From the NCBI GenBank assembly GCA_024275075.1, contig JAJRZU010000043.1, forward strand, positions 6,696 through 70,695: DNA of 64,000 bases. Reading direction: 5' to 3'. The notes beneath the pieces were generated by a model. It was not told where the DNA came from. It worked only from the letters and a program-made list of their open reading frames with translations, and did not search any database. The translations under genes were made by a program, and so were the position numbers. This DNA is from Deltaproteobacteria bacterium. Lineage in GTDB: Bacteria; Desulfobacterota; JAJRXV01. Shown here one piece after another: positions 19,763 to 56,088 of the stretch (position 1 is the stretch's first letter; each line of letters starts with the position of its first letter).

Positions 19763-19983
19763 AACGTCTCCTCTTTTAATGATTTATAATAACAAATAAT
19801 AGGTTCTTTTAAAAGCTTTTTATCTACCGCCGCGTGCGAACGACCAAACTACATAGGCCTTTAATTATCCGGTGACCGTATTTATGTGCATTAGAAGCTA
19901 TTATCAGCGGTATTTCCATTATAGCACTTGTATATTTCAATGCAAAGGGATTTTTTGGTTAATGCGTATTAGCGTCCTGCAAG

Positions 19984-20013
19984 TTATTTTTTTCTTGACT
20001 TGTATTATAAACA
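19984..20013 (+). promoter_or_regulatory. Candidate sigma70 promoter upstream of hup
   Basis: TTGACT (19984-19989), an 18-nt spacer, then TATATT (20008-20013). It lies about 230 nt upstream of the hup start. Confidence 0.25.
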
Positions 20014-20241
20014 TAAACTATATTACCTGCACAATGACTGTTTGAGCCATCGAGATGGACTATAAGGAGTCTCTTGATTTTGATATCGTGGATTTTGTGC
20101 TGATATTGACACAAGGCTCCTGTTATCCCTTGAACATTATTGAATGATACTGTGCAAAGCATACTCATGTATGATACGCATATTAAGGATGTAACATCTT
20201 AAAACATTATTAATTGACTATTTTAAAGGGGGATGTATCAG

Positions 20242-20517
20242 ATGAACAAGACAGATTTAGTAGCGAAGATCGCGGATGGAGCGGAGATTTCAAAGACAGC
20301 GGCGGCTAAGGCATTAAACGCGTTTACAACAAGTATCACAAAAGCATTGAAAAAGGGCGATAAAGTTACGTTAGTCGGTTTCGGGACTTTCTCTGTTGTC
20401 AAAAGAAAGGCGAGAAACGGCGTAAACCCTCAAACAGGCGAGAAGATAAAGATCAAGGCAAGAAAAGTTCCAAAGTTTACATGCGGAAAAGCTTTGAAGG
20501 AATCCATAAAAAAGTAA
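20242..20517 (+). CDS. hup: DNA-binding protein HU
   Basis: MNKTDLVAKIA...GFGTFSVVKRKARNGVNPQTGEKIKI is the canonical HU/IHF fold. ATG 20242 sits 9 nt after an AAAGGGGG RBS. Confidence 0.85.
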   Translation: MNKTDLVAKIADGAEISKTAAAKALNAFTTSITKALKKGDKVTLVGFGTFSVVKRKARNGVNPQTGEKIKIKARKVPKFTCGKALKESIKK

Positions 20518-20580
20518 TATAACTTTACCATTGATGTATATACTGAACCGCTGCCGCCAGGAAGGCGGCAGGTTCGAATA

Positions 20581-20802
20581 GTCGGCAAAAAGCCCGACTT
20601 ACGATATGCGAGGGAAGCGCCCTGAATGTCATTGCGAGGCGCTCACGGTCTTTGTGAGTACTGTGGCAATCTCATCTTTTAATGCATTATACGAAAGACA
20701 AATGATGGGATCGCCGCGTCGTTTGCATAAAGCCGCTACGCATCTAGATGCTCACTCCTCGCGATGCCAGTTGCGCTTAGTTATTGCTGTAACATGTTGT
20801 GC
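20581..20802. repeat. Composite mosaic intergenic repeat (modules D, C and A-like) carrying a nested insertion of about 134 bp
   Basis: GTCGGCAAAAAGCC (20581-20594) and AAAGCCGCTACG...CGCTTAGTTATTGC (20728-20787) are contiguous in the compact copy at 45033-45112. Here they are separated by 134 bp flanked by AAAGCC direct repeats. The insert carries GTCATTGCGAGGCGC, the inverted end of repeat family B. Confidence 0.5.
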
Positions 20803-20955
20803 TAAGAAGCCTTCTATTTTATACTGAAGTTTTCGCCTAAAGGCGGGGGATTTTATATCCCATTAATGAGACATTAGTAAAACCACTGCGCGACCATCAT
20901 TGCTATTTTTTTTGTGACGAAGCAATCTCATAAGTTATCGATACCACTAAAGACG

Positions 20956-21004
20956 AGATTGCCGCGCCGCTTTCTGAAAAGCGCGAAGGCGCCTCGCAAT
21001 GACC
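20956..21004. repeat. Repeat family B copy (AGATTGCCGCGCCGnTTTCTGAAAAGCG...GCGCCTCGCAATGAC)
   Basis: Near-identical 47-49-nt sequence at 56089-56135, and its terminal 15-mer in inverse orientation at 20628-20642. Confidence 0.5.
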
Positions 21005-21069
21005 AAAATGTGAGCTTTTTCAGGTCGTGCCAAGGTCTTTTAATAGAATTTTTATCATAGGGGTAATAA

Positions 21070-27931: not shown

Positions 27932-29122
27932 TTGGAGGGGAGCATGTCTGAAGAAAAGAAGGATGGCCAGGTAGAACAGCTAAAAAAGGACTTTCAAGTT
28001 ATAAAGGATTTTTTGCCAAGGGTTCTTGATTTTGTCAAAGAGCATAAGCGGAAACTCATTATTCTCGGCGCTGTTTTAGTTGCATTAGGGGCGTTATTCA
28101 CGTATAAGATGATTCACTACACCTCAGAGCCTGAGTTTTGCAACCTGTTTTGTCATGAAATGACCCCTGAGGTTGAGTCATGGGAGAATTCATTCCATTC
28201 TCAAAGGGGTGTCGATTGTAAAGAGTGTCATTATGGCGAGGGTATTATGGGGGTTGTTAAAGCTAAGTATTACGCACAGTTTCAGCTTCTGCATCATATC
28301 ACCGGTTCATATTCAAACAACCCGCTTTAAAAGGCGAAGGAGCACGGATTTGAGTTAGCCGCACAGAACATCCACAAGAAGGGTAATAAGGTCTATTACA
28401 TCAAAGCGCATGGATATGCCGCCGAAGTCATCAATTTTAACTGTAAAAGGTGTCACCCGAACGTATTTGACATAGTTAGATCATCAGGTCGGTCGGTCAG
28501 GATGGCTCATAAGCAGCATCTTGAGAAGGGTTATGAATGTACTGACTGTCACATGAATATCGTTCATGGCACAGATCCTGAGGGCTTGAACCTGCCGACG
28601 ATGTGGACGTGTTTCAAGTGCCACGATGATGATAAGGCTCCAAGGGAAGAGTGTGCGTTATGCCACGTCGGGCAAAAGGAGATGTGGGAAGGTGTCGGCG
28701 CGAAAGACATAGATGATGAATCTGCGATGATGCTTGACGAGGTGGAGTGTTCTGACTGCCATTTAGCAGAGGATGACTATATCCCGCCGAGGGATGGCGC
28801 GGTATGCGCAGAATGTCATGATGATGAATCGTATGCGGATACTCTTAAGGAGTGGCAGACGGAAGTCAAGTCAAAAGGCTTCAAGTTAAGAAATATTTTA
28901 GATGAGCTTGCGCAAAGGATGAAGAATATTCAAGAATCTAAGAGAAAAGTGCGTGATTATGATACAGCAAAGGATCTTTATAACAAAGCTACCTACAATG
29001 CCGCGATGATTGAGCATGATGGCAGTAAAGGCGCACATAATTACGATTATGCTGTCTCGATATTAGATGCAAGCCTTAAAATGGCCAGGGACGCAAGGAA
29101 GATATTAACTGCTGGAAAGTAA
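27932..29122 (+). pseudogene. NapC/NirT/NrfH-family membrane-anchored multiheme cytochrome c (8 CxxCH) interrupted by an in-frame TAA at 28328-28330
   Basis: ORFs 27932..28330 and 28502..29122 share a frame. The 171 nt between them is open and encodes another CxxCH (CKRCH). The N-terminus has a TM anchor plus CNLFCHEM...W..SFHS...CKECHY, typical of NapC/NirT. Confidence 0.6.
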
Positions 29123-29168: not shown

Positions 29169-30371
29169 ATGTTACCGCGGTTAAAAGTTTTAATAGGTTT
29201 AATGTTTGTGACGGTCTTTTTATGTGGTTTGACGCTATCTTCTGATGTATCGGCCGCAGATAAGGAAAACTGTCTTATGTGTCATAAATACGCGGGCAAT
29301 GGGCGTTTTGATGACAAAGGCCACCGGAAGATATTTTATGTAAACGAGGAGGTCTTTAGAACTACCGTTCATGGCTTCTTAAGGTGCAGGCAGTGCCACC
29401 AGGACATCAACAAGATTCCACACATAGGCGCCAAGAAAGTAAATTGTACTGTTGACTGCCATCTGGTGGAGCCTTCCACGAAAGACTGGGGCGAGGAGAA
29501 GAAGAATTTTTCTCACGGGAAAGTCGCGGCAATATTCAATGTAAGCGTTCACAACCCAGAAACCAGAAGCGATGGCAAGAAAAGGAAGAACCCGGAGGAT
29601 GTTCCAACCTGCAAGTATTGCCATACAAACCCGAAATATTATACCGGTGCAACCGCACAAGCTGTTGCGGCTGAGAAGAGAGAGACCGCGGTGGTTAACG
29701 ACATCTGCGGGCAGTGCCATGAAAACCTTGAATGGGCAAAAAGATTCTATGGGCACTTTACAAGGCGTGTCAACAAAAGACGAGGCGCCGCCCAGATGGT
29801 TGAGCTGTGCTTAGGCTGCCACTCAGACGTCGAGCTGATGAACAGAAACGGCCTGCCCCCTATCAACGCTTTTGAGGATTCATTCCACTTTAAGGCTATC
29901 AAATTTGGAGATACAAGGGTGCCTGACTGTTTAGGCTGCCATGCTCCGCTTGGGTTCCCTGCTCACAGCATCAAAACCCTTGAGGATCCTGACTCCGCCG
30001 TCTATGCGCAAAACAGGTTACAGAACACCTGCGCGTTAGAAGATTGTCACGGGGCTAACACTACTGAGGACTTTGCATCAGGCCGTGTTCATAACATCGA
30101 CGTTGATGTCAGGGTTGGTAAGGGCTTATTAGAAGGTATGGCTACTGACTATATCAAGGAGACGATTGAAAAAGGAAACAAATTTGATGAGATTATGACC
30201 GAAAAGACCAGGGCAGGCGCTGGTACTGAGCTTGAGGTACTGATATTGAATCTCGTCAGGTTTGTGTATCTTTTCTTAATTATAGCGCCTACTTTGATCG
30301 GAATGTTTTTGCATCAAATCCTTGACTTATATTCAACGTTAAGGGATAGAAAGAAGGGGGGGCACCATTAA
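29169..30371 (+). CDS. Multiheme cytochrome c (about 6 CxxCH plus 2 variant motifs) with C-terminal TM anchor
   Basis: 400 aa with a signal peptide. Motifs: CLMCH, CRQCH, CKYCH, CGQCH, CLGCH x2, plus CTVDCH and CALEDCH. Hydrophobic C-terminal helix. Confidence 0.7.
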   Translation: MLPRLKVLIGLMFVTVFLCGLTLSSDVSAADKENCLMCHKYAGNGRFDDKGHRKIFYVNEEVFRTTVHGFLRCRQCHQDINKIPHIGAKKVNCTVDCHLVEPSTKDWGEEKKNFSHGKVAAIFNVSVHNPETRSDGKKRKNPEDVPTCKYCHTNPKYYTGATAQAVAAEKRETAVVNDICGQCHENLEWAKRFYGHFTRRVNKRRGAAQMVELCLGCHSDVELMNRNGLPPINAFEDSFHFKAIKFGDTRVPDCLGCHAPLGFPAHSIKTLEDPDSAVYAQNRLQNTCALEDCHGANTTEDFASGRVHNIDVDVRVGKGLLEGMATDYIKETIEKGNKFDEIMTEKTRAGAGTELEVLILNLVRFVYLFLIIAPTLIGMFLHQILDLYSTLRDRKKGGHH

Positions 30372-31228
30372 TGCTTATTTTTGATGATAATGAATTAGAA
30401 CCGACAAAAGAACAAGAAAATGAAGAAGATAAAATGGTCTCTTCTGAAGAATATGCCAGTGAGCCGGCTGCCGAAGACACTACGCATGATGAAGTTATCG
30501 ATGATGACTACTCTGATTTGGGGATAGACGAGCACGAAGAGTATATTGTCAGGATGACGAAGAATGAGAGGGTTCAGCACCTGATCCTGTTTATATGCGT
30601 TACTACGCTGGTAATAACCGGATTCGCTCTAAAGATACCAATCGATTATATCACTAAATTAGGATGGATCGGCGCGACTTTATTTAAAATAAGAGGGTAC
30701 GTGCATAGATTATTTGGTACCACCTTACTATTAGCCACCGTTTATCACTTTATCAACCTGGCAGTCTCGAAGGATGGCAGGCGCTATTTTAAAGAGATGG
30801 TGCCAAGGATAAAGGATGTTACTGATGGTATCCACAATATCTCTTTTATGTTAGGTTTCGCGAAAGAGCCGCCGAGGATGGAGTGGTTTGACTACAAAGA
30901 GAAGATCGAGTATTGGGCGCTTCAGGCTGGTACAATGCTTATCGGCACTACCGGGCTGATTCTCTGGTCTAACAGGAGATGGCCTCAGTTAGTAGTAAAC
31001 CTGGCTTATCTGATTCACGGTATGGAGGCTATCTTAGCAACGGGCGCCATCATTATCTGGCACTTTTACTATATACATTTCAAACCAGGCCAGTTCCCGA
31101 TGAACAGGACATGGATAGATGGCAAGATGTCGCTGGCTCATCTGAAGCATGAGCACAGGGCTGTCTATGATAGATATATGGCTGAGAGAAGAAGAGATAT
31201 GCAGCGCAAAAAAGATACTGAAGAATAA
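30371..31228 (+). CDS. Di-heme cytochrome b (Ni/Fe-hydrogenase / FdnI-type b cytochrome family) with acidic N-terminal extension
   Basis: 285 aa. Start overlaps the upstream stop (TAATG). About 60 aa of D/E-rich N-terminus, then ERVQHLILF..TG and four TM helices with conserved His. Confidence 0.55.
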   Translation: MLIFDDNELEPTKEQENEEDKMVSSEEYASEPAAEDTTHDEVIDDDYSDLGIDEHEEYIVRMTKNERVQHLILFICVTTLVITGFALKIPIDYITKLGWIGATLFKIRGYVHRLFGTTLLLATVYHFINLAVSKDGRRYFKEMVPRIKDVTDGIHNISFMLGFAKEPPRMEWFDYKEKIEYWALQAGTMLIGTTGLILWSNRRWPQLVVNLAYLIHGMEAILATGAIIIWHFYYIHFKPGQFPMNRTWIDGKMSLAHLKHEHRAVYDRYMAERRRDMQRKKDTEE

Positions 31229-31267: not shown

Positions 31268-32152
31268 TTGTCTGTAAAAAAAGAAAAAACATTCTTAGGT
31301 ATAGTAAAGGGGATAATTGGCAGGATATTCTGTGTCAGCATGATGATCCTGACGGCTTGGACGCTGATCGTCCTTCTTCGAGGATTATACTTCCCAAAAA
31401 AAGTTGCTACAGTTATTAAGGAGTCAGGGAAAAAGGGTAGCGTACTTCAGGAAAAAATGAAAGAGATCACAGAGTCAAAAGATATCAGAAATCATTTTCA
31501 TAATGTTGATAAGTCTATCTTTGTTGAGGCGAAAGACCCGCCGCTTTGTTTGACATGCCATGGTAACCTGCCGCACACAAAAGCTCTGGAAATGAGAGCA
31601 TTGTTAAACATGCACACATATTTTATTGCCTGCGAGGTTTGTCATATCAGGAAAGAGGCTGATGATGACATATACTTTGCGTGGTATGATTTTGATACAA
31701 GGGAAGAAACTTATACTTTAGAGGGGCCTCCCGGAGATTATAACGCAAAGATAGTACCGGTAAGAAGGTTACCTGGAAAGAAAAAGAGAAGGTTAGACAC
31801 ACCTCTTAACGAGGATTACGCAAGGGACTTTATCGAAAGCGGTTATAAGTGGACATTAGAAGAGAGAGCTAAAGCTAAAGCTCTTATACATGAGGAGCAC
31901 ACTAAGCAACCGGTTCTTTGCAATGAGTGTCATACAAGCAAGAACGGGTATCTGCCTTTTGAAGACCTGCATTTATCTGAAAAAAGAGCGGGGCAACTTA
32001 GAGGCACGGCAGCCGCGGGAATGGTTGAAAGGTACATCAAATTCTACCTGCCGACTATGTTTGATCCGGCGCTCGTCAAGAAGAGAAAGCCATCTGAAAC
32101 CAAAAGTGACGCTTTGATGATTAGCGATGAAGAAATCTTTAATGTCAAATAA
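31268..32152 (+). CDS. Membrane-anchored c-type cytochrome (3 CxxCH)
   Basis: TTG start 6 nt after AGGAGGGGG. N-terminal TM helix, then CLTCH, CEVCH and CNECH. Confidence 0.6.
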   Translation: MSVKKEKTFLGIVKGIIGRIFCVSMMILTAWTLIVLLRGLYFPKKVATVIKESGKKGSVLQEKMKEITESKDIRNHFHNVDKSIFVEAKDPPLCLTCHGNLPHTKALEMRALLNMHTYFIACEVCHIRKEADDDIYFAWYDFDTREETYTLEGPPGDYNAKIVPVRRLPGKKKRRLDTPLNEDYARDFIESGYKWTLEERAKAKALIHEEHTKQPVLCNECHTSKNGYLPFEDLHLSEKRAGQLRGTAAAGMVERYIKFYLPTMFDPALVKKRKPSETKSDALMISDEEIFNVK

Positions 32153-32240
32153 ACGAATTAAGTATCTGAAATGAATTAATAAGGGGAGTTTTTTTAAACT
32201 CCCCTTATTTATAAATCCATATAAATTACAAATAACTCTC

Positions 32241-33200
32241 ATGGTTCTGACTAACAAAAAGCTCTGCCTTTTAATTCTAAATTTATTGATTTTGTCGTGT
32301 TTGTTAATTCTTGCCAATAAATGTCATGCATTAAACGTTGTCTCTACAAAGCTTTTGTTTGAGTTGACGGGCAGTCCAAAAGGAAAATTTGATCAACCTA
32401 CTGCTGTTACATTAGGTAAAGGTGGACGTATCTATGTCATGGATGGCGTCAACAACAGGGTTGTCTATTTTAATAATAATGGTAAATTCTTAAAAGAATT
32501 TGGTGGGGAGGGGTTTGCCGAAGGGCGTTTCTTCTTCCCGCTTGGTATCAAAACGGACGCTGAGGGGAATGTATATGTAGCTGACTCGAAAAACGGCAGG
32601 ATCCAGGTATTTACATATAGTGGTGAATATATAAGAAGTTTCAACTTAGAGAAGATCCAAAAGGGGTTCCAGGCAGACCCTACCGATATCGCCATAAATG
32701 ATAAAATCAATAAGTGCTACATCGTAGATAACGATAATCACAGGATATTAGTTTACAACAAGCAAGGTGAGTACCTGACGAGATTTGGTAGTATGGGGTT
32801 CATAGAGGGTGACTATTTCCGCTACCCGTATAAGGTCGATCTTGACAGCGAAGGCAATGTTTACGTTTTAGAGGTGATTAACACAAGGGTTCAGGTTTTT
32901 GATAAGGATTTGAACTATAAGTACTCGATAGCTGAGTGGGGGCTGGATAAAGGGCAGTTTTTCAGACCCCAGGGGCTTGTGATCGACAATGAGGACAGAG
33001 TCTTCATCGCTGATAACTATACCGGTGTCATACAGGTCTTATCCAAATCAAGTAAGTTTATTGCGGTATTAGGTGATGAAAACGGTGAAATATTAAGGCT
33101 TGATACGCCATGCGGTATGTATATCGATGAAGATAACCGGTTATTTGTTACTCAGATGTTAAAGAACGTTGTATCAGTATATCAACTACAATGGCAATAA
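32241..33200 (+). CDS. NHL-repeat beta-propeller protein (secreted)
   Basis: Signal peptide. Six repeats of the G(R/N)IYV(M/A)D..N.R(V/I)..F type, characteristic of NHL propellers. Confidence 0.7.
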   Translation: MVLTNKKLCLLILNLLILSCLLILANKCHALNVVSTKLLFELTGSPKGKFDQPTAVTLGKGGRIYVMDGVNNRVVYFNNNGKFLKEFGGEGFAEGRFFFPLGIKTDAEGNVYVADSKNGRIQVFTYSGEYIRSFNLEKIQKGFQADPTDIAINDKINKCYIVDNDNHRILVYNKQGEYLTRFGSMGFIEGDYFRYPYKVDLDSEGNVYVLEVINTRVQVFDKDLNYKYSIAEWGLDKGQFFRPQGLVIDNEDRVFIADNYTGVIQVLSKSSKFIAVLGDENGEILRLDTPCGMYIDEDNRLFVTQMLKNVVSVYQLQWQ

Positions 33201-33201
33201 T

Positions 33202-36200
33202 ATGAAAAAGTTTTTTTTTATATTACTCTTTATTTTATTCTTTTGCTCATTTATATGCCTTAAAAGCTCTTTTGCTTACGATAAAGAGAAGGCAAAGATG
33301 TTAAGGGATGAGACAAAAGAGTGTGCTATATGTCATTATGAGTTTATCCCCCAGATATGGGTAGGTAACGGTACCGAACTGGTTGAATATGTTCCCGGCA
33401 GGTTTGTCGGGGACGAACGCGTTTGCTACGGATGTCATAATGGCGGCGTCGCTGATTCCAGGTGGCGTGCATGGTCGATGCAAAGGCACCCGCTAAAAAA
33501 ACCTTCTGACAAAATCAAGATTACAAAGGAATTCCCCTTAAATGACAAGGGTGAGATGTATTGCGGGACATGTCACACCGCTCACGGCGTGGATACGGAC
33601 GCATCCGTTGAGATGGAGCGAACGATATTCCTAAGATACTCAAACAACAATTCTGAGATGTGCATGAGCTGCCACACAAACCAGGCCAAGGGGAAGGAGG
33701 GCGGCAGCCACCCTGTAAATGTATCAACGATCAAATTACCTGAGAAGCTGTCTCATATTGGTGGCTTTACCGGGGATGAACCGAATAAAGTGATCTGTCA
33801 AAGCTGTCACAGCCCGCACGGGACAAGTGAGAAAAAACTGCTGGTCGCCCCGATAAAAAATGCCGAACTATGCGTTCTGTGCCATTATGATAAGGACGCG
33901 AAAACGAGAAAAGAAGCGGCTCGCAAAGGCACGCACCCGGTAAACATCGCGTCAGACACGGTGAAGATATCAGAGAAGTTGAGAAAATTAGGTAGTCGAA
34001 CCGGTACGAAGGGCAGGATAAATTGTCTTTCATGCCACACCGTTCATGATGGCATCAAGGGAAACAAACTTGTTTTAAAAAGAAACTCTGACTCTTCGTT
34101 CTGCCTTGAGTGCCATGAGAAGCAGGAATCGGTATTAGACTCAAAGCATGACCTGCGGGTTACCGCACCGAATGAGCGAAACAAGCTAAAGCAATCACCA
34201 AAGCGCTCCGGGCCTTGCAGCGCCTGCCATATCCCTCATAAAGCCGCCGCGGCGAAGATATGGGCAAAGGAGATCGACACCCGCGGCGAAGCGATAGAGG
34301 AGCTTTGTAAAACCTGTCATGAAAAAGGGGCATGTGCCGAAAAGAAGCAGGTCGGCTTAAATTCGCACCCGGTGGGGATACCGCTTGCCAGGGTAGGCGG
34401 GAGCAGATCGGCTCTGCCGACGTTTGATGAAAATGGCGTAAAAACTATAGTCGATACGAATGTCACCTGCTCCACATGCCATAACGTTCATCAGTGGGAC
34501 CCCCGCAATAAAGTGGTAAAGGGTGACAAGGACATTGACGGTAACTATACAAACAGTTTCTTACGGATAAGGAACCTGTTTGGACTGAGGCTTTGTACTG
34601 ATTGCCATAAGGACCAGGAGTTTATTTTCAGGACTGAACATGACCTGACAGTAACCGCTCCTTTAGAGAAGAACATCCTCGGGCAGACTCCCGCTGAGTC
34701 AGGGCCGTGCGGTGTGTGTCATACCGTCCACAACGCGTTAAGCAAGAACAAGCTCTGGGCGCGACAGTTAGGTGACGCCGATGACGCTGTCTCCATGTTC
34801 TGCTTCAGCTGCCATGAGGAGGGCAGGGTCGCACAAAAGAAGCTTACCGGTGAACATTCCCACCCTGTGATGGCCGACATAAAGCGGGCGGATGGATCGA
34901 CAACGCTCCCTTTGTATATGATAAACAGTAAAAAGGACCCTGAAAAGGGTAAGGTTACCTGTGCAAGCTGCCATAATCTTCACCAATGGGACCCCGAGAT
35001 CAAGGGGCAGGGACCCGGGGAGAATACCGAAGGCGATGTTACAAACAGTTTCTTACGGATAAGGAACGATGCGGATTCCGCTCTTTGTAATGATTGCCAT
35101 GAGGGGAAATATCTGATAGAGGACACCGACCACGACATGGCGGTGACCGCTCCGGACGAGAAGAACCTGCTCGGGCAGACAGTAGCCGAAACAGGGGTAT
35201 GCGGCGCCTGTCACACTATTCATAACGGTGTCTCCTCATTCAAGCTCTGGGTAAAAAAACTCGGCGGCACCGAGCTTGATGATTGTATATCAAGGCTCTG
35301 CTTTAGCTGTCATGACAGGCAGCGTGTCGCACAAAAGAAGCTGGTCGGGGAGAATTCCCACCCAGTGAACGCCGATATAAAGAAAGCGGACGGCTCGACA
35401 GACCTGCCATTATTCAACAAGGAGGGGCGCATCCCGAAAGAAGGCGAGGAGGGCAGGGTCTTTTGTTCCACCTGCCACAACCTGCACCAATGGGACCCGA
35501 CGAAGAAGGAGAAAGGACCAGGGGAGCCTGTGGAGGGTGATATCTCAAACAGCTTCCTGCGCCTGCCGAATGACGCCGGCTCTACGCTGTGCAAAAACTG
35601 CCATGACGGTAAAGACCTCGTTGAGGGGACTGACCATGACATGGCGGTAACGGCGCCCGGGGAGAAAAACATTGTTGGGGAGACCGTGGAGAAGACCGGC
35701 GCGTGCGGCGCGTGTCATATCGTCCATAACGGTGTCTCAACGTATAAACTGTGGGGTAAGGAGTTAGGCGGCGACGAGGATACAGATGGTATTTCGCGGC
35801 TATGCTTCAGCTGTCACGAGGAAGGCAGGGTGGCGCACAAGAAGCAGGTCGGTAAGAATTCCCACCCCGTTGGCGTCGATATCTCGACCGTAGGCGGTGA
35901 GACAGACCTGCCGCTCTTTGATGAAAAAGGTAAAAAAATTGACGGTAATGGCAATGGAAAGGGCAAAGTGTTCTGCTCCACCCGCCACAACCTGCACCAG
36001 TGGGATCCGCTCATAGATGATTATGGCTCCAATGAAAACCTTGAGGGCAACCGCACCAACAGCTTTTTGCGCCTGCCGAATGACGCCGGCTCCACGCTGT
36101 GCAAAAACTGTCACAAGGGTAAGGAATATGTGGAGGGGACAGAGCATGACCTTTCGGTAACCGCGCCGGCCGCAGAGAACGCTATCGGCGAGACAGTCGA

Positions 36201-37203
36201 TGTCGCAGGCGTTTGCAGCGCATGTCACCTTGTCCATAATGGATACGCGTCCGCGTTTTTATGGGCGCGAGTACCGGGCGTGGGGGAGGACAAAGTATCA
36301 AGGTTGTGCACAAGCTGCCACTTAGAGGGACGTGTCGCGCAGAAAAAGACATTAAATGAGAACTCGCATCCGGTTAACGTGCTGATCAGCAGGGCGGACG
36401 GCAGCACCGATTTCCCGCTTTATAATGATATGGGGAAGAAAGACCCTGAAGGCAGGGTGTTTTGCAGCTCTTGTCACAATGTTCATCAATGGAATCCGTC
36501 TAAAGTGGATTATGGGCCAAGGATCAACATTGAAGGAACGCCCCAGACAAGCTTCCTGCGCGCGCCCGGCCTTGACCTGTGTATTAATTGCCACGAAGGG
36601 AAAGATTATATTATCGATACAGAGCATGACCTGAGCGTCACCGCACCCGAAGAGAAGAATCTCCTTGGCAGGACTGTCGCCGAGGACGGCGTTTGCAGCG
36701 CGTGTCACATTATCCATAATGGTGTCAACAAACCGCTCCTGTGGGCGCGTCTTTTCGGGCCGCCGTTCATCAGGGACTGGCAGACGAAATTCGGGGCGGA
36801 AGAGGACCCTGTGGTTCAGGCTTGCACAAGCTGCCATTCTGAAAAAAACATCGCCGAGAAGAAACAGCCGATAGTCGGGCTGCACCCGCGCGGTATTTTT
36901 GTCGGGATAAAACCACTGCCGTTCATCTCCAAGGGAGAGCCGATTCCACCACTATATGATGTGCACGGCGCGAGGATAAAAACAGGGAACTTAGTCTGCC
37001 CTACATGCCACAATCTGCACCAGTGGAGCGGTAGAAAGAAGAAGAAGGGGCCGGGCAAGAACATCGAGGGCAATGCGAACAACAGTTTTTTAAGGAGTGG
37101 AGTCTCTTTCGGCTTATGTCCTGACTGCCACTCATTTGACGGATTGTTCCGGTTCAAGTATTATCATGTACCAAGGATGAGAAACAGAAAATCGAAGAAA
37201 TAG
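33202..37203 (+). CDS. Giant repetitive multiheme cytochrome c (about 31 CxxCH motifs)
   Basis: The ORF frame opens at 33169, but ATG 33202 (MKKFFFILLF signal peptide) follows the NHL stop. The C-terminal two thirds consists of about 5.5 tandem units of roughly 165 aa, each with 4 CxxCH, with 80-90 % nucleotide identity between units. Confidence 0.8.
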   Translation: MKKFFFILLFILFFCSFICLKSSFAYDKEKAKMLRDETKECAICHYEFIPQIWVGNGTELVEYVPGRFVGDERVCYGCHNGGVADSRWRAWSMQRHPLKKPSDKIKITKEFPLNDKGEMYCGTCHTAHGVDTDASVEMERTIFLRYSNNNSEMCMSCHTNQAKGKEGGSHPVNVSTIKLPEKLSHIGGFTGDEPNKVICQSCHSPHGTSEKKLLVAPIKNAELCVLCHYDKDAKTRKEAARKGTHPVNIASDTVKISEKLRKLGSRTGTKGRINCLSCHTVHDGIKGNKLVLKRNSDSSFCLECHEKQESVLDSKHDLRVTAPNERNKLKQSPKRSGPCSACHIPHKAAAAKIWAKEIDTRGEAIEELCKTCHEKGACAEKKQVGLNSHPVGIPLARVGGSRSALPTFDENGVKTIVDTNVTCSTCHNVHQWDPRNKVVKGDKDIDGNYTNSFLRIRNLFGLRLCTDCHKDQEFIFRTEHDLTVTAPLEKNILGQTPAESGPCGVCHTVHNALSKNKLWARQLGDADDAVSMFCFSCHEEGRVAQKKLTGEHSHPVMADIKRADGSTTLPLYMINSKKDPEKGKVTCASCHNLHQWDPEIKGQGPGENTEGDVTNSFLRIRNDADSALCNDCHEGKYLIEDTDHDMAVTAPDEKNLLGQTVAETGVCGACHTIHNGVSSFKLWVKKLGGTELDDCISRLCFSCHDRQRVAQKKLVGENSHPVNADIKKADGSTDLPLFNKEGRIPKEGEEGRVFCSTCHNLHQWDPTKKEKGPGEPVEGDISNSFLRLPNDAGSTLCKNCHDGKDLVEGTDHDMAVTAPGEKNIVGETVEKTGACGACHIVHNGVSTYKLWGKELGGDEDTDGISRLCFSCHEEGRVAHKKQVGKNSHPVGVDISTVGGETDLPLFDEKGKKIDGNGNGKGKVFCSTRHNLHQWDPLIDDYGSNENLEGNRTNSFLRLPNDAGSTLCKNCHKGKEYVEGTEHDLSVTAPAAENAIGETVDVAGVCSACHLVHNGYASAFLWARVPGVGEDKVSRLCTSCHLEGRVAQKKTLNENSHPVNVLISRADGSTDFPLYNDMGKKDPEGRVFCSSCHNVHQWNPSKVDYGPRINIEGTPQTSFLRAPGLDLCINCHEGKDYIIDTEHDLSVTAPEEKNLLGRTVAEDGVCSACHIIHNGVNKPLLWARLFGPPFIRDWQTKFGAEEDPVVQACTSCHSEKNIAEKKQPIVGLHPRGIFVGIKPLPFISKGEPIPPLYDVHGARIKTGNLVCPTCHNLHQWSGRKKKKGPGKNIEGNANNSFLRSGVSFGLCPDCHSFDGLFRFKYYHVPRMRNRKSKK
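34549..37140 (+). repeat. Intragenic tandem repeat array (about 500-nt period) inside the giant cytochrome gene
   Basis: Unit landmarks (N)SFLR(I/L)(R/P)N at about 34549, 35041, 35548, 36058, 36550 and 37085. For example, 35545-35610 versus 36055-36120 are nearly identical. Confidence 0.6.
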
Positions 37204-37228
37204 CTAAACGCTAAAAAGGGGAATAGTA

Positions 37229-37882
37229 ATGGCAAAACCTGCGGGAGTCCAGATCAAAAGATGGTTTATGATACTTATTATATTGCTTATAACAGTCAAC
37301 ATTATCTCCGTGTTATCTTTCTTCGTCGTTTATTCGAAGATAAATGAGATAAAGGCGGCATACCAACCGATCGTCAAATCAAGCGCGGCTATCAACTCGA
37401 AGATATTGTCAGCCCAGATAGACCTGTATAAATACTTGTCAGAGTATCAGGATGACTTAGGGTCGGTATACATTAAGACAAAAGGCCTGACAAATGAGTT
37501 GAAAAACATCAATTCTATCGTTAAAGAGGCAAATATCAAGGCGTTGGACGTTAAGTTATTAGATGGCGTATTAGAGTCTACCGAGAAGTTTGAGAGCGCT
37601 ATAAAACGGTTGGACAGTATTGATGAGCAAGGCGTGGTAGACTGGGACAGAGTGAATGAATTAAGAGATTATGCCGCTACGATGGGGACGGAGGCATCGA
37701 TTAAAATAGAAAGCGTAAACAACGAGATCAACCTCTTGATAACTAACCATAACATCAGGGTCACGCTTATCGCCCTGATAGTCGTCTGTATCCTGTTCGC
37801 GTTCCTTATCCTGAGCTTTGTCATCATGATCCAGCTCCACTACTGGTGGAAGAAATTTGAAGACCTGATATTAGAACTATAA
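37229..37882 (+). CDS. Membrane protein with periplasmic helical/coiled-coil domain between two TM helices (sensor-like, no output domain)
   Basis: 217 aa with TM helices at both ends and a helical middle. No recognisable catalytic motifs. Confidence 0.35.
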   Translation: MAKPAGVQIKRWFMILIILLITVNIISVLSFFVVYSKINEIKAAYQPIVKSSAAINSKILSAQIDLYKYLSEYQDDLGSVYIKTKGLTNELKNINSIVKEANIKALDVKLLDGVLESTEKFESAIKRLDSIDEQGVVDWDRVNELRDYAATMGTEASIKIESVNNEINLLITNHNIRVTLIALIVVCILFAFLILSFVIMIQLHYWWKKFEDLILEL

Positions 37883-37894
37883 AATCATTATTTG

Positions 37895-37918
37895 CCCCCC
37901 TCTCATCAAGGGAGGGGG
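37895..37918. terminator. Bidirectional stem-loop between convergent genes (37229..37882 + and coaX -)
   Basis: CCCCCTC-tcatcaagg-GAGGGGG: 7-bp GC-rich stem with A/T-rich flanks. Confidence 0.4.
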
Positions 37919-37927
37919 AGTTCGTGT

Positions 37928-38704
37928 TCATCCCACCAATAAGGCATGGTTATAAACTTCGTTAAGACCTTTAAGGATCAGAGAGTAGTCACAGGTATCG
38001 ATGACATTTTTCAGATCGTCCCGCAAAGCGGGTAATGCCCCGCCTGTCGCGATGACTTTGACGTCCTCGCCTATCTCGTCTTTCATGCGTGATACGATGT
38101 GCGTCACCAACCCCGCGAACCCGTTGAATATGCCGCTTTGCATCGCAAGGGAAGTATCCTGCCCGATGACTTTTTCCGGCGCCCGAAGCTCGATCACCGG
38201 TAATTTACTTGTATTGCGATACAAGGCCTCGACGCAGATGTTTATCCCCGGCGCTATCACCCCGCCCAAAAACTCGCCCGCTTTGTTGATATAATCAAAG
38301 GTGATCGCCGTACCAAAATCGATCACGATGACGCCGCCTTTTATGGTATGATGAGCGGCGCACGCGTTGACGAGCCTGTCCGCCCCTACCTCGCGGGGAG
38401 AACGCACCATGACCTTGATATCAGGAATGGATTGTAGCCCCGCAAAAAACGGGTGCGCGTCGAACATCCTTGTCATAAGCTTTTTGTATGCCGCGTCAAG
38501 TTCGGGCACTACTGATACAATGATGACATCCTTTATCCCGCTCTTGTTCACGCCCTTACACACCAGCATCTTGTCTATGACAGCCTCATGCTCCTTCGCC
38601 TTGTGCGCCTTGTTGGTGGGGAACCGGAAATCCGCGATGACCCTGCCGCCGCTGATAATACCCGCGAATACTGTACTGTTACCGATATCGACTGCCAGAA
38701 GCAT
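37928..38704 (-). CDS. coaX: Type III pantothenate kinase
   Basis: 258 aa with MLLAVDIGNST and the GADRL motif of CoaX. Confidence 0.85.
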   Translation of the reverse strand: MLLAVDIGNSTVFAGIISGGRVIADFRFPTNKAHKAKEHEAVIDKMLVCKGVNKSGIKDVIIVSVVPELDAAYKKLMTRMFDAHPFFAGLQSIPDIKVMVRSPREVGADRLVNACAAHHTIKGGVIVIDFGTAITFDYINKAGEFLGGVIAPGINICVEALYRNTSKLPVIELRAPEKVIGQDTSLAMQSGIFNGFAGLVTHIVSRMKDEIGEDVKVIATGGALPALRDDLKNVIDTCDYSLILKGLNEVYNHALLVG

Positions 38705-39670
38705 CTACTTGACCCCGCTTATCGTACCTGAAAATACTTTTCGGATTCCACTGTCTGAGCGCAAAATCAGGAAGCCGTTCTCGTCGATCCCTTAGGCGAC
38801 GCCCGTTACCTCGTCGGCGATCGTCTTAACGGTGACTACCCTGTTCAAGAGGAGGCAATAGCTGTTCCATTCCCCCCGTATTTTTTCAAAACCCTCTTTT
38901 GTCAATATTATATACATTTTTTCAAGATTTAAAATGATTTTCTCAAAAAGGCTCCGCTTCGAGATCTTTGCGCCGCACTCATGCCTTAGTGTGGTAGCGG
39001 CAGCTATGAGCTCCTTCGGGAAGTCATCGGGCTGCGAGTTCACGTTGACGCCGATACCGGTGATAATAAAATCGATAGCGTCGGACTCGCTTTTCATCTG
39101 TGTCAGGATGCCGCATACCTTTTTGCCGCCGATGTAGATGTCGTTAGGCCACTTGATACCGGGTTTCAGGCCGGTGACCTCCATGATCGCCTGTGCGACG
39201 GCTATCGCGCTCATCACCGTTACCCTTGGTGCGAATGACGGGAGCATCTTCGGCTTCAGTATGACAGAGAAGTACAGGTTCTCGCTTGACGCCGAGACCC
39301 ACTCCCTGCCCATCCTGCCCCTGCCTTTTGTCTGCCTGTCGCTGATGACGACTGCGCCCTCACCGCCGCCGCTTTGCGCCAGCCTGTACGCTTCATCGTT
39401 GGTGGAGCCGATAGTATTGTAGTGGATGATGTTACCGCCAAGCAGGTGACCGGTGAGGCTTTTCCCCACCGCGGCGAAATCGATGCAGTTAAGGTCATCG
39501 ACCAGCTTATAACCGTACGACCTCATCGATATGATGTTATAGCCCTGTGATCTCAGGATGTTGATGCGCTTATGCACGGCGTTCCTCGTGATGCGTAGCT
39601 CACCGGCTATCTTCTGGCCGGACAGATAATCTTTATTATTCTTTAGAAGTGTAAGGATGCTATCTTTCAA
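38705..39670 (-). pseudogene. birA: Biotin-protein ligase / biotin operon repressor BirA interrupted by an in-frame TAA at 38792-38794
   Basis: N-terminal HTH and a catalytic domain with GRGRMGREW. ORF 38792..39670 stops before the C-terminal SH3-like domain. The same frame continues ...TGVA*GIDENGFLILRSDSGIRKVFSGTISGVK to TAG at 38705, matching the BirA C-terminal domain. Confidence 0.65.
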
Positions 39671-43249: not shown

Positions 43250-44806
43250 CTACTCTTTTTTAAGCTTCTCTATCTCTTCTTTTATCAAACGTTCCGCGAG
43301 ATCCGGTACTACTTCCCAGACAACGTTCTCGATTATGCTCTTCGTAAGCTCTGCCGCGGTTTTTCGCAACGTCTGCTCGTTTACTATCTCGCCAAGCTTC
43401 TCTTGCACAATAGCATTGATCTTGCTCTCATCTAACTTGAGCTCCTGTATTACCGCCGGTTGCTCTGCCTCTCCTTCAGCTGTGCCTTCAAAAGCGCTTA
43501 CATCCCAGCCATCTTCCTCTTCAACCGGAGCCGCCTCTTCTTCTGCCGCTGCCATGATCTCTTCTTCGGACTCCCATTCCTCTTCTTCCACTTCGACCGG
43601 CGCTTCCACTTCGACCGGCGCTTCCACTTCGACCGGAGCCTCCACTTCAACCGGAGCCTCCTCTTCGACCGGCGCCTCCACTTCAACCGGCGCCTCCACT
43701 TCAACCGGCGCCTCCACTTCAACCGGAGCCTCCTCTTCGACCGGCGCTTCCACTTCGACCGGCGCCTCCACTTCGACCGGCGCTTCCACTTCAACCGGCG
43801 CCTCCTCTTCAACCGGCGCTTCCTCTTCGACCGGAGCTTCCTCTTCGACCGGAGCCTCCACTTCGACCGGAGCCTCCACTTCAACCGGAGCTTCCACTTC
43901 AACCGGCGCCTCCACTTCGACCGGAGCTTCCACTTCAACCGGCGCTTCCACTTCAACCGGAGCTTCCTCTTCGACCGGAGCTTCCTCTTCGACCGGAGCC
44001 TCCTCTTCGACCGGCGCTTCCTCTTCGACCGGAGCCTCCTCTTCAACCGGCGCTTCCACTTCGACCGCCTCGACGACAAACGCTTCAGCGGTTTCTTCTA
44101 ATTCACCCTCTTCGATTATCTCCGCTTCGTGTATCTCTTCATCATCATATTCCCCTTCTAATATTTCCGCGGCTTCAATGATCTCTTCTTCGGGTTCATG
44201 CTGTATCTCCTCAACAGGAGTGATCGACCAGTCACCGTCACTGGACGCGGGAGCCTCCCCTGCTTCAGAATCATCGACAGAAGAGAAGGAGATATCCTCG
44301 TCAATAGAGAGTGGGGCTTCTTCCCCAGCAGGCTCTGTCACGGTAGCAGGTTCTTCAGCCGCGGCGCCTTCATCCATAGCGCCCAATTCCATTTCAATGG
44401 CCTGCTCTTCTATTACCTCAGCTTCAGCGTCTTTAGTGCCTGCCGCGTAGAGCGCATTCACTTTCTCGATGAGTTCATCGCCCCCAAAAGGCTTTATTAT
44501 ATGATCATCAGCTTTGGCATCGGCAAGCTTAGTTTCATCGACTTCTATATATTTTGAGATCATAATGGCAACAGGTATGCCGCTAAGCTCTGGGTCATTT
44601 TTGATCTCTTTACACACATCATAACCGTTTTTGTCGGGCATGTTAAGATCGACAAGGATAGCGTCGGGCATAGTCTCTTTTGCTCTTGATACGCAGTCAG
44701 CACCGTCTGTAACGCATATTATTTCATCATCTATGTTATAATAGATCAGTTCGATAACTTTTCTAATGGTCGCGCTATCATCGGCAATAAGAAGTTTTTT
44801 TGACAT
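43250..44806 (-). CDS. CheY-like receiver domain protein with long acidic EAPVE(V/E) tandem-repeat region
   Basis: N-terminal REC (LLIADDSATIRKV...D54-like DLNMPDKNG...KP). About 170 aa of EAPVEV/EAPVEE repeats, then a short conserved helical C-terminus. Confidence 0.6.
   Translation of the reverse strand: MSKKLLIADDSATIRKVIELIYYNIDDEIICVTDGADCVSRAKETMPDAILVDLNMPDKNGYDVCKEIKNDPELSGIPVAIMISKYIEVDETKLADAKADDHIIKPFGGDELIEKVNALYAAGTKDAEAEVIEEQAIEMELGAMDEGAAAEEPATVTEPAGEEAPLSIDEDISFSSVDDSEAGEAPASSDGDWSITPVEEIQHEPEEEIIEAAEILEGEYDDEEIHEAEIIEEGELEETAEAFVVEAVEVEAPVEEEAPVEEEAPVEEEAPVEEEAPVEEEAPVEVEAPVEVEAPVEVEAPVEVEAPVEVEAPVEVEAPVEEEAPVEEEAPVEEEAPVEVEAPVEVEAPVEVEAPVEEEAPVEVEAPVEVEAPVEVEAPVEEEAPVEVEAPVEVEAPVEVEAPVEVEEEEWESEEEIMAAAEEEAAPVEEEDGWDVSAFEGTAEGEAEQPAVIQELKLDESKINAIVQEKLGEIVNEQTLRKTAAELTKSIIENVVWEVVPDLAERLIKEEIEKLKKE
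43588..44075. repeat. 18-nt coding tandem repeat (about 27 copies; GAAGTGGAAGCGCCGGTC on the coding strand, encoding EVEAPV)
   Basis: Direct reading of the sequence shows two alternating unit variants (…CCACTTC / …CCTCTTC), giving EAPVEV versus EAPVEE. Confidence 0.8.
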
Positions 44807-53847: not shown

Positions 53848-54582
53848 CTAATATATCACATCAATCAGGAAAAGGCCGCGGGCGGGGGCAGTGATATATG
53901 GTTTTTCTATCTTCTTCTGCCTTAAAACAACGTCAGCAAATCCTTCATCATACTTACCATAACCGATCTGCACCAAGAGACCGGTGATATTCCTCACCAT
54001 CTGCTTCAAAAAGCCGCTGCCTGTAAATGTCAGCGTAATATCATGTCCGTTTTTTTGTATATCGATATCATATATAGTCCTTAAAAAGCTCTTTACACTC
54101 GTACCGGTGGAAGTGAAGCCGGTGAAATCATGCTCACCGGTCAAACGCTTTGCCGCCCGCCGCATCTTACTGACATCAAGCGGCTTTCTTACGTACCATG
54201 AATACTTTTTCATAAACGGGTCTTTTGTGTCACGGTTAAATATATGATATTCATACACTTTTTTTTTCGCGGAGATTCGTGCGTGAAACCCATCATCGAC
54301 ACGGCGCATATCCACCACCGCAATATCATCTGGCAGTAGCGAGTTCAACGAATTCCGAAGCCTGACAATATCGATATCCCTTTCTATAAGAAAATTCGCC
54401 GTCATCTTCCTCGCGTGTACCCCTGCGTCAGTTCTCCCTGAAGAGTGTAGCGTCACGCGCTCTTTTGTGACGACCATAATACAGTTTTCTATCTCGCCCT
54501 GAACACTCCTCGCGTTCGACTGCCTCTGCCAGCCGCTATAATCCGTACCGACAAATTCTATTATCATCATTATATTATTCAT
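53848..54582 (-). CDS. truA: tRNA pseudouridine(38-40) synthase TruA
   Basis: IEFVGTDYSGWQRQ...RTDAGVHA motifs. The ORF extends to 54663, but the start is likely the internal Met just after the upstream gene's stop. Confidence 0.75.
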   Translation of the reverse strand: MNNIMMIIEFVGTDYSGWQRQSNARSVQGEIENCIMVVTKERVTLHSSGRTDAGVHARKMTANFLIERDIDIVRLRNSLNSLLPDDIAVVDMRRVDDGFHARISAKKKVYEYHIFNRDTKDPFMKKYSWYVRKPLDVSKMRRAAKRLTGEHDFTGFTSTGTSVKSFLRTIYDIDIQKNGHDITLTFTGSGFLKQMVRNITGLLVQIGYGKYDEGFADVVLRQKKIEKPYITAPARGLFLIDVIY

Positions 54583-54601
54583 TGTACGTGAACTATTACC
54601 G

Positions 54602-54946
54602 CTACTTATCGTTTTGATGAAGAAACTTGGTAACCTGAACAGTCTCTCTTGTGACCATACCACCTTGCATAACCGCGTAAACCTCAGGGAGAATGCTTAA
54701 TATGTTATCATCCGTATCAATAACCTCGATTATTATCGGCAGGTCTCTTGACAGCCTCAAGAACCGGTCTTCGTGAAGCTCGTGCCGGCAGCCAAAACCG
54801 GCGATGCCCTTTGTGACAGTCGCGCCGGATATATTGTGCTTAGCGCAAATATCCAGAATATGCTTGTAAAGCGGTTCATGCTCTACCTGATCCGCCTCGT
54901 CGATATAGACCTTCATCTTAACCATCTCACATTGAATCTTTTTCAT
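54602..54946 (-). CDS. DUF190 (PII-like) protein, CrcB-associated
   Basis: MKKIQCEMVKMKVYIDEAD...GIAGFG pattern of DUF190 (COG1993). Immediately downstream of crcB. Confidence 0.55.
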   Translation of the reverse strand: MKKIQCEMVKMKVYIDEADQVEHEPLYKHILDICAKHNISGATVTKGIAGFGCRHELHEDRFLRLSRDLPIIIEVIDTDDNILSILPEVYAVMQGGMVTRETVQVTKFLHQNDK

Positions 54947-55019
54947 CTCATCCACCTCTAATTGAACTGCCCCGCTGAAAGCCGCGGGGGCTAAGCCCGT
55001 TGCAAAACAAGCGCGTCGG

Positions 55020-55415
55020 TTAGAATATCCTGTCAAGTAGAACACCGAAAGACACACCGAGAAAAACCATAAACAGGCATATCGCAAGGTTTGTCAGGAT
55101 ATTCATAATTGATAAGTAATAGCTTCCCTCTTTTAACAGGTTAAACGTCTCGAAGCTAAAGGTTGAGAACGTCGTAAACGCGCCTAAGAAACCGATAGTC
55201 ACCGCTACGCGCAGGTTCTGCCCGAAAAGTTGCCTGTGCACCGCTAAAAATGAGATGAACCCTAACAGAAAGGACCCGATAGCGTTGACGGTGAGGGTGC
55301 CGTAAGGGAATCCGTCCCCGAAGAGCCTGTAAGCGATGCCTGACACGTAGAACCTGCTCACCGCGCCGAAGAACCCGCCGAAACCTATGTAAAGTATCTC
55401 ACGCAACCGGTTCAT
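55020..55415 (-). CDS. crcB: Fluoride ion channel CrcB/FluC
   Basis: 131 aa, 4 TM helices, with GFFGAVSRF...GTLTVN motifs. Confidence 0.85.
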   Translation of the reverse strand: MNRLREILYIGFGGFFGAVSRFYVSGIAYRLFGDGFPYGTLTVNAIGSFLLGFISFLAVHRQLFGQNLRVAVTIGFLGAFTTFSTFSFETFNLLKEGSYYLSIMNILTNLAICLFMVFLGVSFGVLLDRIF

Positions 55416-56010
55416 CTATATCCTTAATGTCAGAGCTGGTATTAATATTCCTGAGCGACAGCATATCCGGGTCGTACTGTTTCACCTCGTCGATGTTCAT
55501 CGTCTTCGCCCGAAGCTCGCGAAACAGAGGCGATATCTTAAGCTCATCATTAATTATCATACCCTTTATCGTTTTCAGGCACTTCTTGCTGTATATCGAG
55601 TGCAGCGGCTCATACCCCGCCGCCTCGCTTTTCCCTGGCTGCTCCCTGACAATCGTATAGATCCACGCGGTACCGATGCTCTTGATCATATACTTTATCA
55701 GCCGCTCACTCAGAAACGGCATATCGCAGGCCGCGACAAAGCAGCGGTCGTTAGTTGAGTGCAGGAGCGCCGTATATATCCCGCCAAGGGGGCCTTTTCC
55801 CCTGGCAGTATCGCTCACGATAACGGTATCGTACTTAAGGTACGGTATGCAATCGTTCGTGACGATGATTATCTCGTCGAAGAGCTTTTTGAACAGTTTT
55901 ACCTGCACATCGATTATCGGTGCCCCGCCTACCCTGATGAACGCTTTGTTCATGCCCGATAACCGTCTCGCCTTACCGCCCGCCAGAATGACCCCAGTCA
56001 TAATGTCCAT
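55399..56010 (-). CDS. mobA: Molybdenum cofactor guanylyltransferase MobA-like
   Basis: MTGVILAGGKARRLSG..K nucleotide-binding loop. The ORF extends to 56079, but Met 56010 fits. Confidence 0.65.
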   Translation of the reverse strand: MDIMTGVILAGGKARRLSGMNKAFIRVGGAPIIDVQVKLFKKLFDEIIIVTNDCIPYLKYDTVIVSDTARGKGPLGGIYTALLHSTNDRCFVAACDMPFLSERLIKYMIKSIGTAWIYTIVREQPGKSEAAGYEPLHSIYSKKCLKTIKGMIINDELKISPLFRELRAKTMNIDEVKQYDPDMLSLRNINTSSDIKDIDEPVA

Positions 56011-56088
56011 CCCTATGATATAATTCCAAGCGTGCCCATCCTGCCGCTGCCTGTAACCTACCGGTATTGCTAAAAGCAAGATTGCCGC

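Follow-up and report, generated by a model that had tools for sequence, protein, structure and literature searches.

The stretch of DNA analysed here, 64,000 nucleotides from a Deltaproteobacteria bacterium (hereafter the window), encodes a giant multiheme c-type cytochrome in which one heme-binding motif reads CSTRH instead of CxxCH. Judged by profile comparison, the repeat unit of this protein is homologous to the subunit of the OmcE nanowire. The aberrant motif is most likely an isolated single-base lesion, either noise or a very young mutation, in a conserved OmcE-like heme wire.

The giant cytochrome is a single open reading frame of 1,333 residues from its ATG, as a preliminary description of this DNA had proposed, and its three closest homologs are equal in length. 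The motif table of the translation holds 31 CxxCH motifs and the one CSTRH, which makes 32 positions. Several Pfam domains score far above their curated cut-offs: Paired_CXXCH_1 (PF09699) with 204.5 bits for a cut-off of 20.6, Cytochrome_C7 (PF14522) with 139.1 bits for 24.8, and Cytochrom_c3_2 (PF14537) with 107.2 bits for 25; the MtrC/MtrF II/IV domain reaches 128 bits. These signatures are all generic multiheme ones, and together with the 31 motifs they class the protein among the multiheme c-type cytochromes. Since c-type heme is attached outside the cytoplasm, an export signal is expected, and inspection of the translation pointed to one in the hydrophobic N-terminus, MKKFFFILLFILFFCSFICLKSSFA. 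A protein identical to the giant cytochrome (P0001) is recorded from the NCBI contig.

When the protein is cut in the register of OmcE, it consists of the signal peptide, an octaheme region, six tetraheme modules (residues 306-1310) and a short basic tail. The octaheme region has partial NCBIfam similarity to GSU2203 and to DmsE-type decaheme cytochromes, under the cut-offs of these families. The preliminary description had counted about 5.5 units from residue 450 or so; there are six, from about residue 306, and the C-terminal 'half unit' is the last heme of module 6. Its four-heme units of about 165 residues and their consensus were otherwise recovered. Cut at the SFLR element, the units are 163-178 residues long, start at residues 452, 616, 784, 954, 1117 and 1295, and hold four CxxCH each. 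The alignment gives the natural register, in which OmcE begins just before HDL and finishes with FLR...LCxxCH.

The kinship with OmcE, whose tetraheme subunit polymerises into the cytochrome nanowires of Geobacter and Desulfuromonas, is supported by profile searches. A profile of 34 diverse units matched in the PDB the OmcE nanowires of D. soudanensis (9YUQ, E = 2.9e-11) and G. sulfurreducens (7TFS, E = 6.6e-9), followed by OmcS (6EF8, E = 1.5e-5). With a profile built from the window alone, the OmcE entries were the sole PDB matches (E = 1.8e-7 and 1.3e-5), and the matches were collinear. Searches of the PDB with phmmer, using the full-length protein or single units, and with Foldseek gave nothing significant, and the fold similarity of the module to OmcE appears moderate. 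The modules share with 7TFS and 9YUQ the order of their elements, which runs HDL, CxxCH-x2-H, LW, CxSCH, HP, LPL(F/Y), CxxCHxxH, FLR and LCxxCH. Among 426 homologous full-length units (partial domain matches were excluded from the count), 16 Cys/His columns are invariant, corresponding to the four CxxCH and four more His. OmcE homologs are likewise reported to keep four CxxCH and four other histidines, and the modules carry the same set, which would imply four bis-His hemes in each. The architecture differs: OmcE consists of monomers of about 200 residues that polymerise non-covalently into extracellular filaments, whereas here a single polypeptide links all six modules covalently and has the octaheme head in front of them.

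The aberrant motif stands out against this conservation. The preliminary description had rightly reported that CSTRH lacks one heme-binding Cys, which is the second of the motif, by a one-base change from TGC to CGC, relative to CSTCH in paralogous units and, as we now find, in orthologs. Its positions were slightly off: the motif occupies 35974-35988 and not 35970-35984, the base at 35976 is not the changed one, which is 35983, and CSTCH begins at 34468 and 35464 in the paralogous units rather than at 34471 and 35461. All orthologs examined (L001, L002 and L003) have CSTCH, with TGC or TGT as the codon. In 120 family members, 456 of the 457 motif sites of this type are intact CxxCH, and only two of the 6,816 invariant Cys/His cells in the 426 full-length units deviate. 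One is CSTRH. The other lies within residues 683-846 of P0032, a protein from a metagenome-assembled genome (MAG), where a one-base change turns the proximal His into Tyr (CxxCY); it is probably noise of the same kind.

A natural variant motif should be conserved in orthologs or paralogs, and the Arg is found in none of the three orthologs and in one of the 426 units. The operon's other cytochromes have all of their 19 heme motifs intact, giving 50 intact motifs when the giant cytochrome is included. The latter shows no rate acceleration: it has 73 lineage-unique residues, compared with 41, 79 and 94 in the orthologs. This distribution points to a change that is very recent or not real. We looked for independent copies of the site and found no sequence of the same species in the collections searched; the 178-residue piece around CSTRH retrieved only distant matches (38-51 % identity), and the best match in a scan of a collection of genome contigs for another copy of base 35983 was 71 % identical. 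Elsewhere in the operon we found motifs that are true natural variants, unlike CSTRH: the conserved CX3CH (CNLFCH) that is the first heme motif of the NapC/NirT-type cytochrome, and the CTVDCH (CX3CH) and CALEDCH (CX4CH) of the cytochrome of about 400 residues, both of which are kept in the ortholog at L001.

CSTRH is not the only lesion in this DNA. The in-frame stops that the preliminary description had mentioned elsewhere in the window were confirmed and number four, each of them within a conserved gene; with CSTRH, the isolated point lesions in the 64 kb come to five or more. In birA, conservation continues for 29 codons past the TAA, GIDENGFL among them, as far as the original stop beside coaX. 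The sensor kinase has, in addition to its TAG, no HATPase_c domain; we sought it in the downstream gap (5607-6143, 537 nucleotides) and did not find it there. This gap holds REP-like repeat sequence that translates as ...IPAKAGIQ...WIPAFAGMT.... No frameshift was found in any of the 11 genes for which orthologous loci allowed a comparison. Those suspected at 53848-56079 turned out to be boundaries between four separate genes (truA, DUF190, crcB and mobA-like), and the same-frame pairs of reading frames that could have been split genes (24/1638, 3637/4291, 48075/49029 and 17597/19259) are merely adjacent genes. Stop-codon reassignment or readthrough was rejected because TAA, TAG and TGA all end normal genes and because the replaced residues differ (Glu in one case, Leu or Ile in another).

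The CSTRH protein, the truncated BirA (292 residues) and the truncated NapC/NirT-type protein (128 residues) are all recorded from the same NCBI contig of 82,748 bp. The Arg and the stops in birA and in the NapC/NirT-type gene thus belong to the deposited assembly, and for these three we can exclude that the lesions were introduced after deposition. For the kinase, we sought the exact fragment of 290 residues in the public collection and did not retrieve it. Under a uniform substitution model, in which 4.1 % of coding substitutions make stops, three to four stops in the 57 kb of coding sequence correspond to about 75-100 substitutions. One then expects 0.33-0.44 hits on the heme-binding Cys, Cys and His of the giant gene, and the probability of at least one is about 0.28-0.36. 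CSTRH therefore needs no explanation beyond whatever made the stops, and is inseparable from the general lesion load.

As to the source of these lesions, we lean towards CSTRH being a consensus error in a metagenome-derived contig: the essential birA is truncated and yet its tail is conserved, and each affected gene has a single stop, with no frameshift in the genes comparable with orthologs. Several points weigh against an error. The length of the contig speaks against very low coverage; it would be unusual for a consensus to carry about 1-2 errors per kb that are all substitutions; and the kinase without HATPase_c, followed by a gap holding only REP-like sequence, looks like genuine decay. 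A real, very young mutation, deleterious and not adaptive, is accordingly quite possible as well. One could go further and regard the lesions as marks of an operon that is being inactivated in a strain for which the pathway has become dispensable, with the NapC/NirT-type quinol dehydrogenase knocked out and the Cys-to-Arg change reflecting early decay under relaxed selection. Two lesions do fall within one operon, CSTRH and two stops are in the deposited contig, and the two defects of the sensor kinase suggest genuine pseudogenes in this genome. However, the operon holds no excess of lesions (if four stops are spread over 57 kb of coding sequence, at least one falls within its 10 kb with a probability of about 0.5), the cytochrome evolves no faster than its orthologs, the operon's other 50 heme motifs are intact and the genes compared with orthologs show no indels or frameshifts. 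Moreover, the essential birA is hit alike, with perfectly conserved codons downstream. Because of these points, indiscriminate substitutions that are very recent or artefactual fit better than decay of the pathway, which we regard as unlikely.

That CSTRH is functional is far less probable still. Such a site could either carry a heme on a single thioether, through the first Cys, and on the His, or be left empty, and both versions are highly improbable, as is the corollary that it would serve to tune the redox potential or to act as a gate for electrons at heme 23. The first Cys and the proximal His are indeed kept, and natural single-thioether c-type hemes are described in other systems, namely the A/FxxCH cytochromes of euglenozoans (PMC8262978) and SfmD (PMC8179489). 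However, the natural single-Cys motifs known lack the first Cys and not the second, and single-Cys cytochromes (XXXCH or CXXXH) are described as very poor substrates of Ccm (PMC3268396, with reference to Allen 2002 and Goddard 2010); CXXXH is very poorly handled by bacterial maturation systems. If the Arg is real, the attachment of heme 23 would for this reason be poor or fail altogether, and the chain would have a gap at this point. No dedicated lyase gene was found within the window, and the change comes together with premature stops in four unrelated genes. CSTRH resembles the non-canonical motifs CXXCK, CX3CH, CX4CH, CX15CH and A/FXXCH in departing from CXXCH, and keeps the His ligand. Those motifs are conserved in their families and often come with dedicated lyases, whereas CSTRH is a singleton without the second Cys, the three orthologs and 425 of the 426 homologous units having kept it.

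The wire in which the lesion lies appears to be old and stable. The preliminary description had viewed the units as recently duplicated, with 80-90 % identity at the DNA level, and the gene as a likely hotspot of unit gain and loss, in which case the assembled copy number might be unreliable; our data refute the recent expansion and the hotspot and make this reading as a whole very improbable. A codon-aware alignment of the units cut at SFLR (numbered U0 to U5) gave 46-61 % protein and 51-64 % DNA identity among U1-U5. U0 (residues 289-451) is more divergent, with 36-43 % protein and 47-55 % DNA identity to the others. Tandem Repeats Finder reported no array in 32000-38500, and the repeats detected otherwise are 60-84 % identical over stretches of 50-200 nucleotides, reaching 84 % only in short patches of 50. 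A recent expansion should leave at least 80 % DNA identity and long exact repeats, and the longest exact matches between units are 28 and 25 nucleotides. A short-read assembler would not collapse units of such divergence.

The orthologs tell the same story. Three of them are full-length, from a JGI metagenome (P0002, 74 % identity), a Thermodesulfobacteriota MAG (P0003, 70-71 %) and a 'Deltaproteobacteria' MAG (L003, 71 %); no relative closer than about 70-74 % was found in the collections searched. All have the same protein length, six units and 32 of 32 heme motifs. In each of the three orthologs, the unit nearest to a given unit of the window is its positional counterpart (59-83 % identity, vs. 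37-69 % for paralogs). Because the units match by position, the array predates the split of the orthologs, which indicates that it is ancient and already had all six units when these lineages, now about 70 % identical, separated. A hotspot would show as copy-number differences among close relatives, and no unit was gained or lost in the window protein or in its three nearest relatives.

The only sign of recent exchange between units is a short tract at the junctions of units 3 and 4, which share the 19 residues NSFLRLPNDAGSTLCKNCH. At the second of these junctions the window has LPNDAGS, a form found in none of the three orthologs (LPNTSGS in P0002 and P0003, LPNDSGS in L003). An exact repeat of 28 nucleotides also links two unit junctions (34548-34575 and 35040-35067). 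These near-exact junction repeats, set against an overall unit identity of about 60 %, probably reflect short gene conversion between neighbouring modules. They show that units occasionally exchange sequence, and this, together with the differences in unit number across the wider family, is what speaks for a more dynamic array. We searched 1.84 billion representative proteins and found 962 relatives, 225 of them at E ≤ 1e-30, ranging from OmcE-sized proteins of about 220 residues, in which two stretches match, to some of more than 2,400 residues, with up to 16 such stretches. The heme counts of the wider family cluster at 20, 24, 28, 32, 34-35 and 48-49, mostly in steps of four. Unit number thus varies in the family, but only over long evolutionary distances.

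Table 1. Features of the giant cytochrome, its operon and the lesions, in coordinates of the window (residues are those of the encoded protein).
Feature	Position	Strand	Basis or remark
Multiheme c-type cytochrome gene, including stop codon	33202-37203	+	Open reading frame list, motif table, Pfam
Predicted Sec signal peptide MKKFFFILLFILFFCSFICLKSSFA, cleavage before YD	33202-33276	+	Translation inspected by eye
N-terminal octaheme region, CxxCH at residues 41, 75, 121, 154, 199, 224, 275, 301	33277-34116	+	
OmcE-type tetraheme module 1, residues 306-469, motifs at 339, 369, 423, 465	34117-34608	+	Alignment; profile matches to 7TFS and 9YUQ
Module 2, residues 470-633, motifs at 503, 534, 587, 629	34609-35100	+	Alignment, profile
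Module 3, residues 634-801, motifs at 667, 700, 755, 797	35101-35604	+	Alignment, profile
Module 4, residues 802-971, motifs at 835, 868, 925 (CSTRH), 967	35605-36114	+	
Module 5, residues 972-1131, motifs at 1005, 1036, 1088, 1127	36115-36594	+	Alignment, profile
Module 6, residues 1132-1310, motifs at 1165, 1208, 1266, 1306; short basic tail to 37200	36595-37131	+	Alignment, profile
Degenerate motif CSTRH (TGC TCC ACC CGC CAC), residues 925-929, 23rd of 32 motifs, third in module 4	35974-35988	+	
Arg codon CGC, changed base C at 35983	35983-35985	+	Cys (TGC or TGT) in every homolog
Junction tract	35558-35600	+	42 of 43 nucleotides identical to 36068-36110; both encode NSFLRLPNDAGSTLCKNCH
NapC/NirT-type membrane-anchored octaheme cytochrome, first gene of the operon	27944-29122	+	TAA inside at 28328-28330
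Multiheme cytochrome of about 400 residues, eight motifs including CX3CH and CX4CH, C-terminal hydrophobic helix	29169-30371	+	
Cytochrome b (Ni_hydr_CYTB / FdnI-like), presumed quinone-interacting	30371-31228	+	PF01292, 45.5 bits; 41 of 64 loci
Membrane-anchored triheme cytochrome, 294 residues	31268-32152	+	46 of 64 loci
Secreted NHL-repeat beta-propeller	32241-33200	+	Pfam NHL, 89.5 bits; 50 of 64 loci
Membrane protein of 217 residues, terminal hydrophobic helices, last gene of the operon	37229-37882	+	No family match
Terminator-like GC-rich hairpin closing the operon	37896-37918	+	Consensus scan
Premature TAA in the NapC/NirT-type cytochrome of the operon	28328-28330	+	GAA (Glu) in L001, where the open reading frame is intact (396 residues); Cytochrom_NNT spans the stop
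Premature TAA in birA (gene 38705-39670)	38792-38794	-	Leu or Ile in orthologs
Premature TAG in sensor kinase (6144-8783)	7911-7913	-	Between dCache and the transmembrane-PAS-GAF-HisKA part
Premature TAG in thioredoxin/DsbA-like lipoprotein gene (56624-58144)	57752-57754	-	Inside the Thioredoxin_4 domain

The giant cytochrome gene is the sixth in an operon of seven (Table 1), and the stop of the NHL propeller gene lies 1 nucleotide ahead of its ATG. The ortholog locus L001 is syntenic across the operon. The order cytochrome of about 400 residues, cytochrome b, triheme cytochrome of about 290 residues, NHL propeller and giant cytochrome recurs in about 40-50 of 64 loci, and the first of these genes adjoins the giant cytochrome in 44 of them; the 217-residue membrane protein is present only in close orthologs. 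Carriers of this five-gene cassette include Gallionellaceae, Sulfuricella, Thiobacillus, Nitrospirota, Desulfobacterota, Schekmanbacteria and others. No gene for a porin or large beta-barrel was found in the operon, in L001 or in the Gallionellaceae locus L064, the only loci that were inspected for it. We found no description of the cassette, nor of concatenated OmcE-type modules, in the literature that we searched.

The cassette shares elements with known gene clusters and matches none of them. Like the omcE clusters, it has a beta-propeller and additional multiheme cytochromes beside the giant gene. Those clusters include a large outer-membrane beta-barrel, beta-propeller lipoproteins and two multiheme cytochromes, whereas the beta-barrel is missing from the inspected loci and a cytochrome b and membrane-anchored cytochromes are present. 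The giant cytochrome is thus homologous in its modules, but it is not a strict member of the OmcE nanowire system. The Uet cluster of 'Ca. Tenderia electrophaga' and Gallionella, for which a role in long-distance electron conduction was proposed, also has NHL propeller genes beside a multiheme cytochrome that is long and linear and shows doubled-CXXCH signatures (bioRxiv 10.1101/2022.05.06.490989; PMC10734462). The undecaheme UetJ, the porin UetC, the cupredoxin UetF, the three c7 trihemes UetDEG and the PPIase of that cluster have no counterparts in the operon. We rejected membership in Uet, the NHL propeller being the only element in common.

The PCC3 porin-cytochrome clusters of Sideroxydans and Gallionellaceae resemble the giant cytochrome in having very large cytochromes, with 21-35 hemes, which were proposed to span the periplasm or to extend from the cell (PMC5566968; PMC10734462). 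PCC3 is defined by a porin and an FRD-like inner-membrane protein, whereas the cassette has neither and its membrane subunit is of the Ni_hydr_CYTB type. The periplasmic cytochromes of PCC3 have 21, 24 or 27 hemes, in contrast to the steps of four that prevail in the giant-cytochrome family. Some Gallionellaceae do encode members of this family, and the homolog of a Gallionellaceae MAG sits in a cassette of multiheme cytochrome, cytochrome b, small cytochrome and NHL propeller without a porin. Membership in PCC3 was rejected because neither porin nor FRD-like protein was found. Finally, the outer-membrane cytochrome clusters of Desulfovibrio ferrophilus IS5 also combine NHL propellers with multiheme cytochromes, and the propellers co-expressed with the cytochromes were proposed to stabilise the cytochrome complex (PMC5815863). 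The IS5 cytochromes are smaller than the giant cytochrome, and the likeness is one of gene context alone.

A few other features of the window deserve mention. In a protein of 712 residues (13572-15710, plus strand), MopE-like copper-binding motifs occur together with a right-handed beta-helix and with PMP repeats; this protein, which is unrelated to the operon, may bind metal at the cell surface. The response-regulator gene at 43250-44806 (minus strand, 518 residues) has a long low-complexity region, whose antisense frame reads as FHFDRR/LHFNRR repeats and gives a spurious open reading frame of 200-400 residues at 43433-44101 (plus strand). Apart from a small HU/IHF-like gene (20233-20517), the 1.3 kb at 19763-21069 contain just REP-like repeats. 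The window was also scanned for Rfam families and tRNAs, and neither was detected.

The architecture of the giant cytochrome and the composition of its cassette suggest how the system might work. The six modules would set 24 hemes within one polypeptide, in a continuous chain of stacked and T-shaped pairs like that of OmcE. With the rise of OmcE (29-31 Å per subunit), they would extend over about 18 nm, to which the octaheme head would be added, a length comparable to the width of the periplasm. The cassette would couple the quinone pool, through the cytochrome b and the membrane-anchored cytochromes, to this long heme chain, and electrons would pass between the quinone pool and a distant partner, periplasmic or outer. 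The proposed partners of the giant cytochrome are the two smaller membrane-anchored multiheme cytochromes, the cytochrome b and the NHL propeller, joined in the window by the NapC/NirT-type cytochrome. We tentatively propose that these proteins may form an undescribed family, in which the OmcE nanowire is covalently concatenated, with one to more than 12 tetraheme modules (20 to about 49 hemes), and encoded in a cassette of five genes that lacks a porin and is conserved in several phyla. The product would be a periplasm-spanning wire of fixed length plugged into the quinone pool.

In itself CSTRH is of minor importance and serves best as a data-quality flag. Visible point lesions, that is stops or lost invariant residues, occur about once per 10-15 kb in this contig, and single-residue oddities in it need reads before they are interpreted biologically. 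If the Arg allele is real, for which there is an appreciable chance, the organism would carry a natural 'one heme missing' variant of the wire; that this variant is functional or adaptive is extremely unlikely. For the family, the same heme chain appears to be built in two ways, by polymerised monomers in one case and by fused modules in the other, the latter changing its length in steps of four hemes. This offers a genetically defined heme wire of fixed length for the study of long-range electron transfer. It also provides a candidate for a conduit across the periplasm in bacteria of the iron and sulfur cycles (Gallionellaceae, Sulfuricella, Thiobacillus, Nitrospirota and Desulfobacterota), where the giant cytochrome comes without a recognised porin-cytochrome partner.

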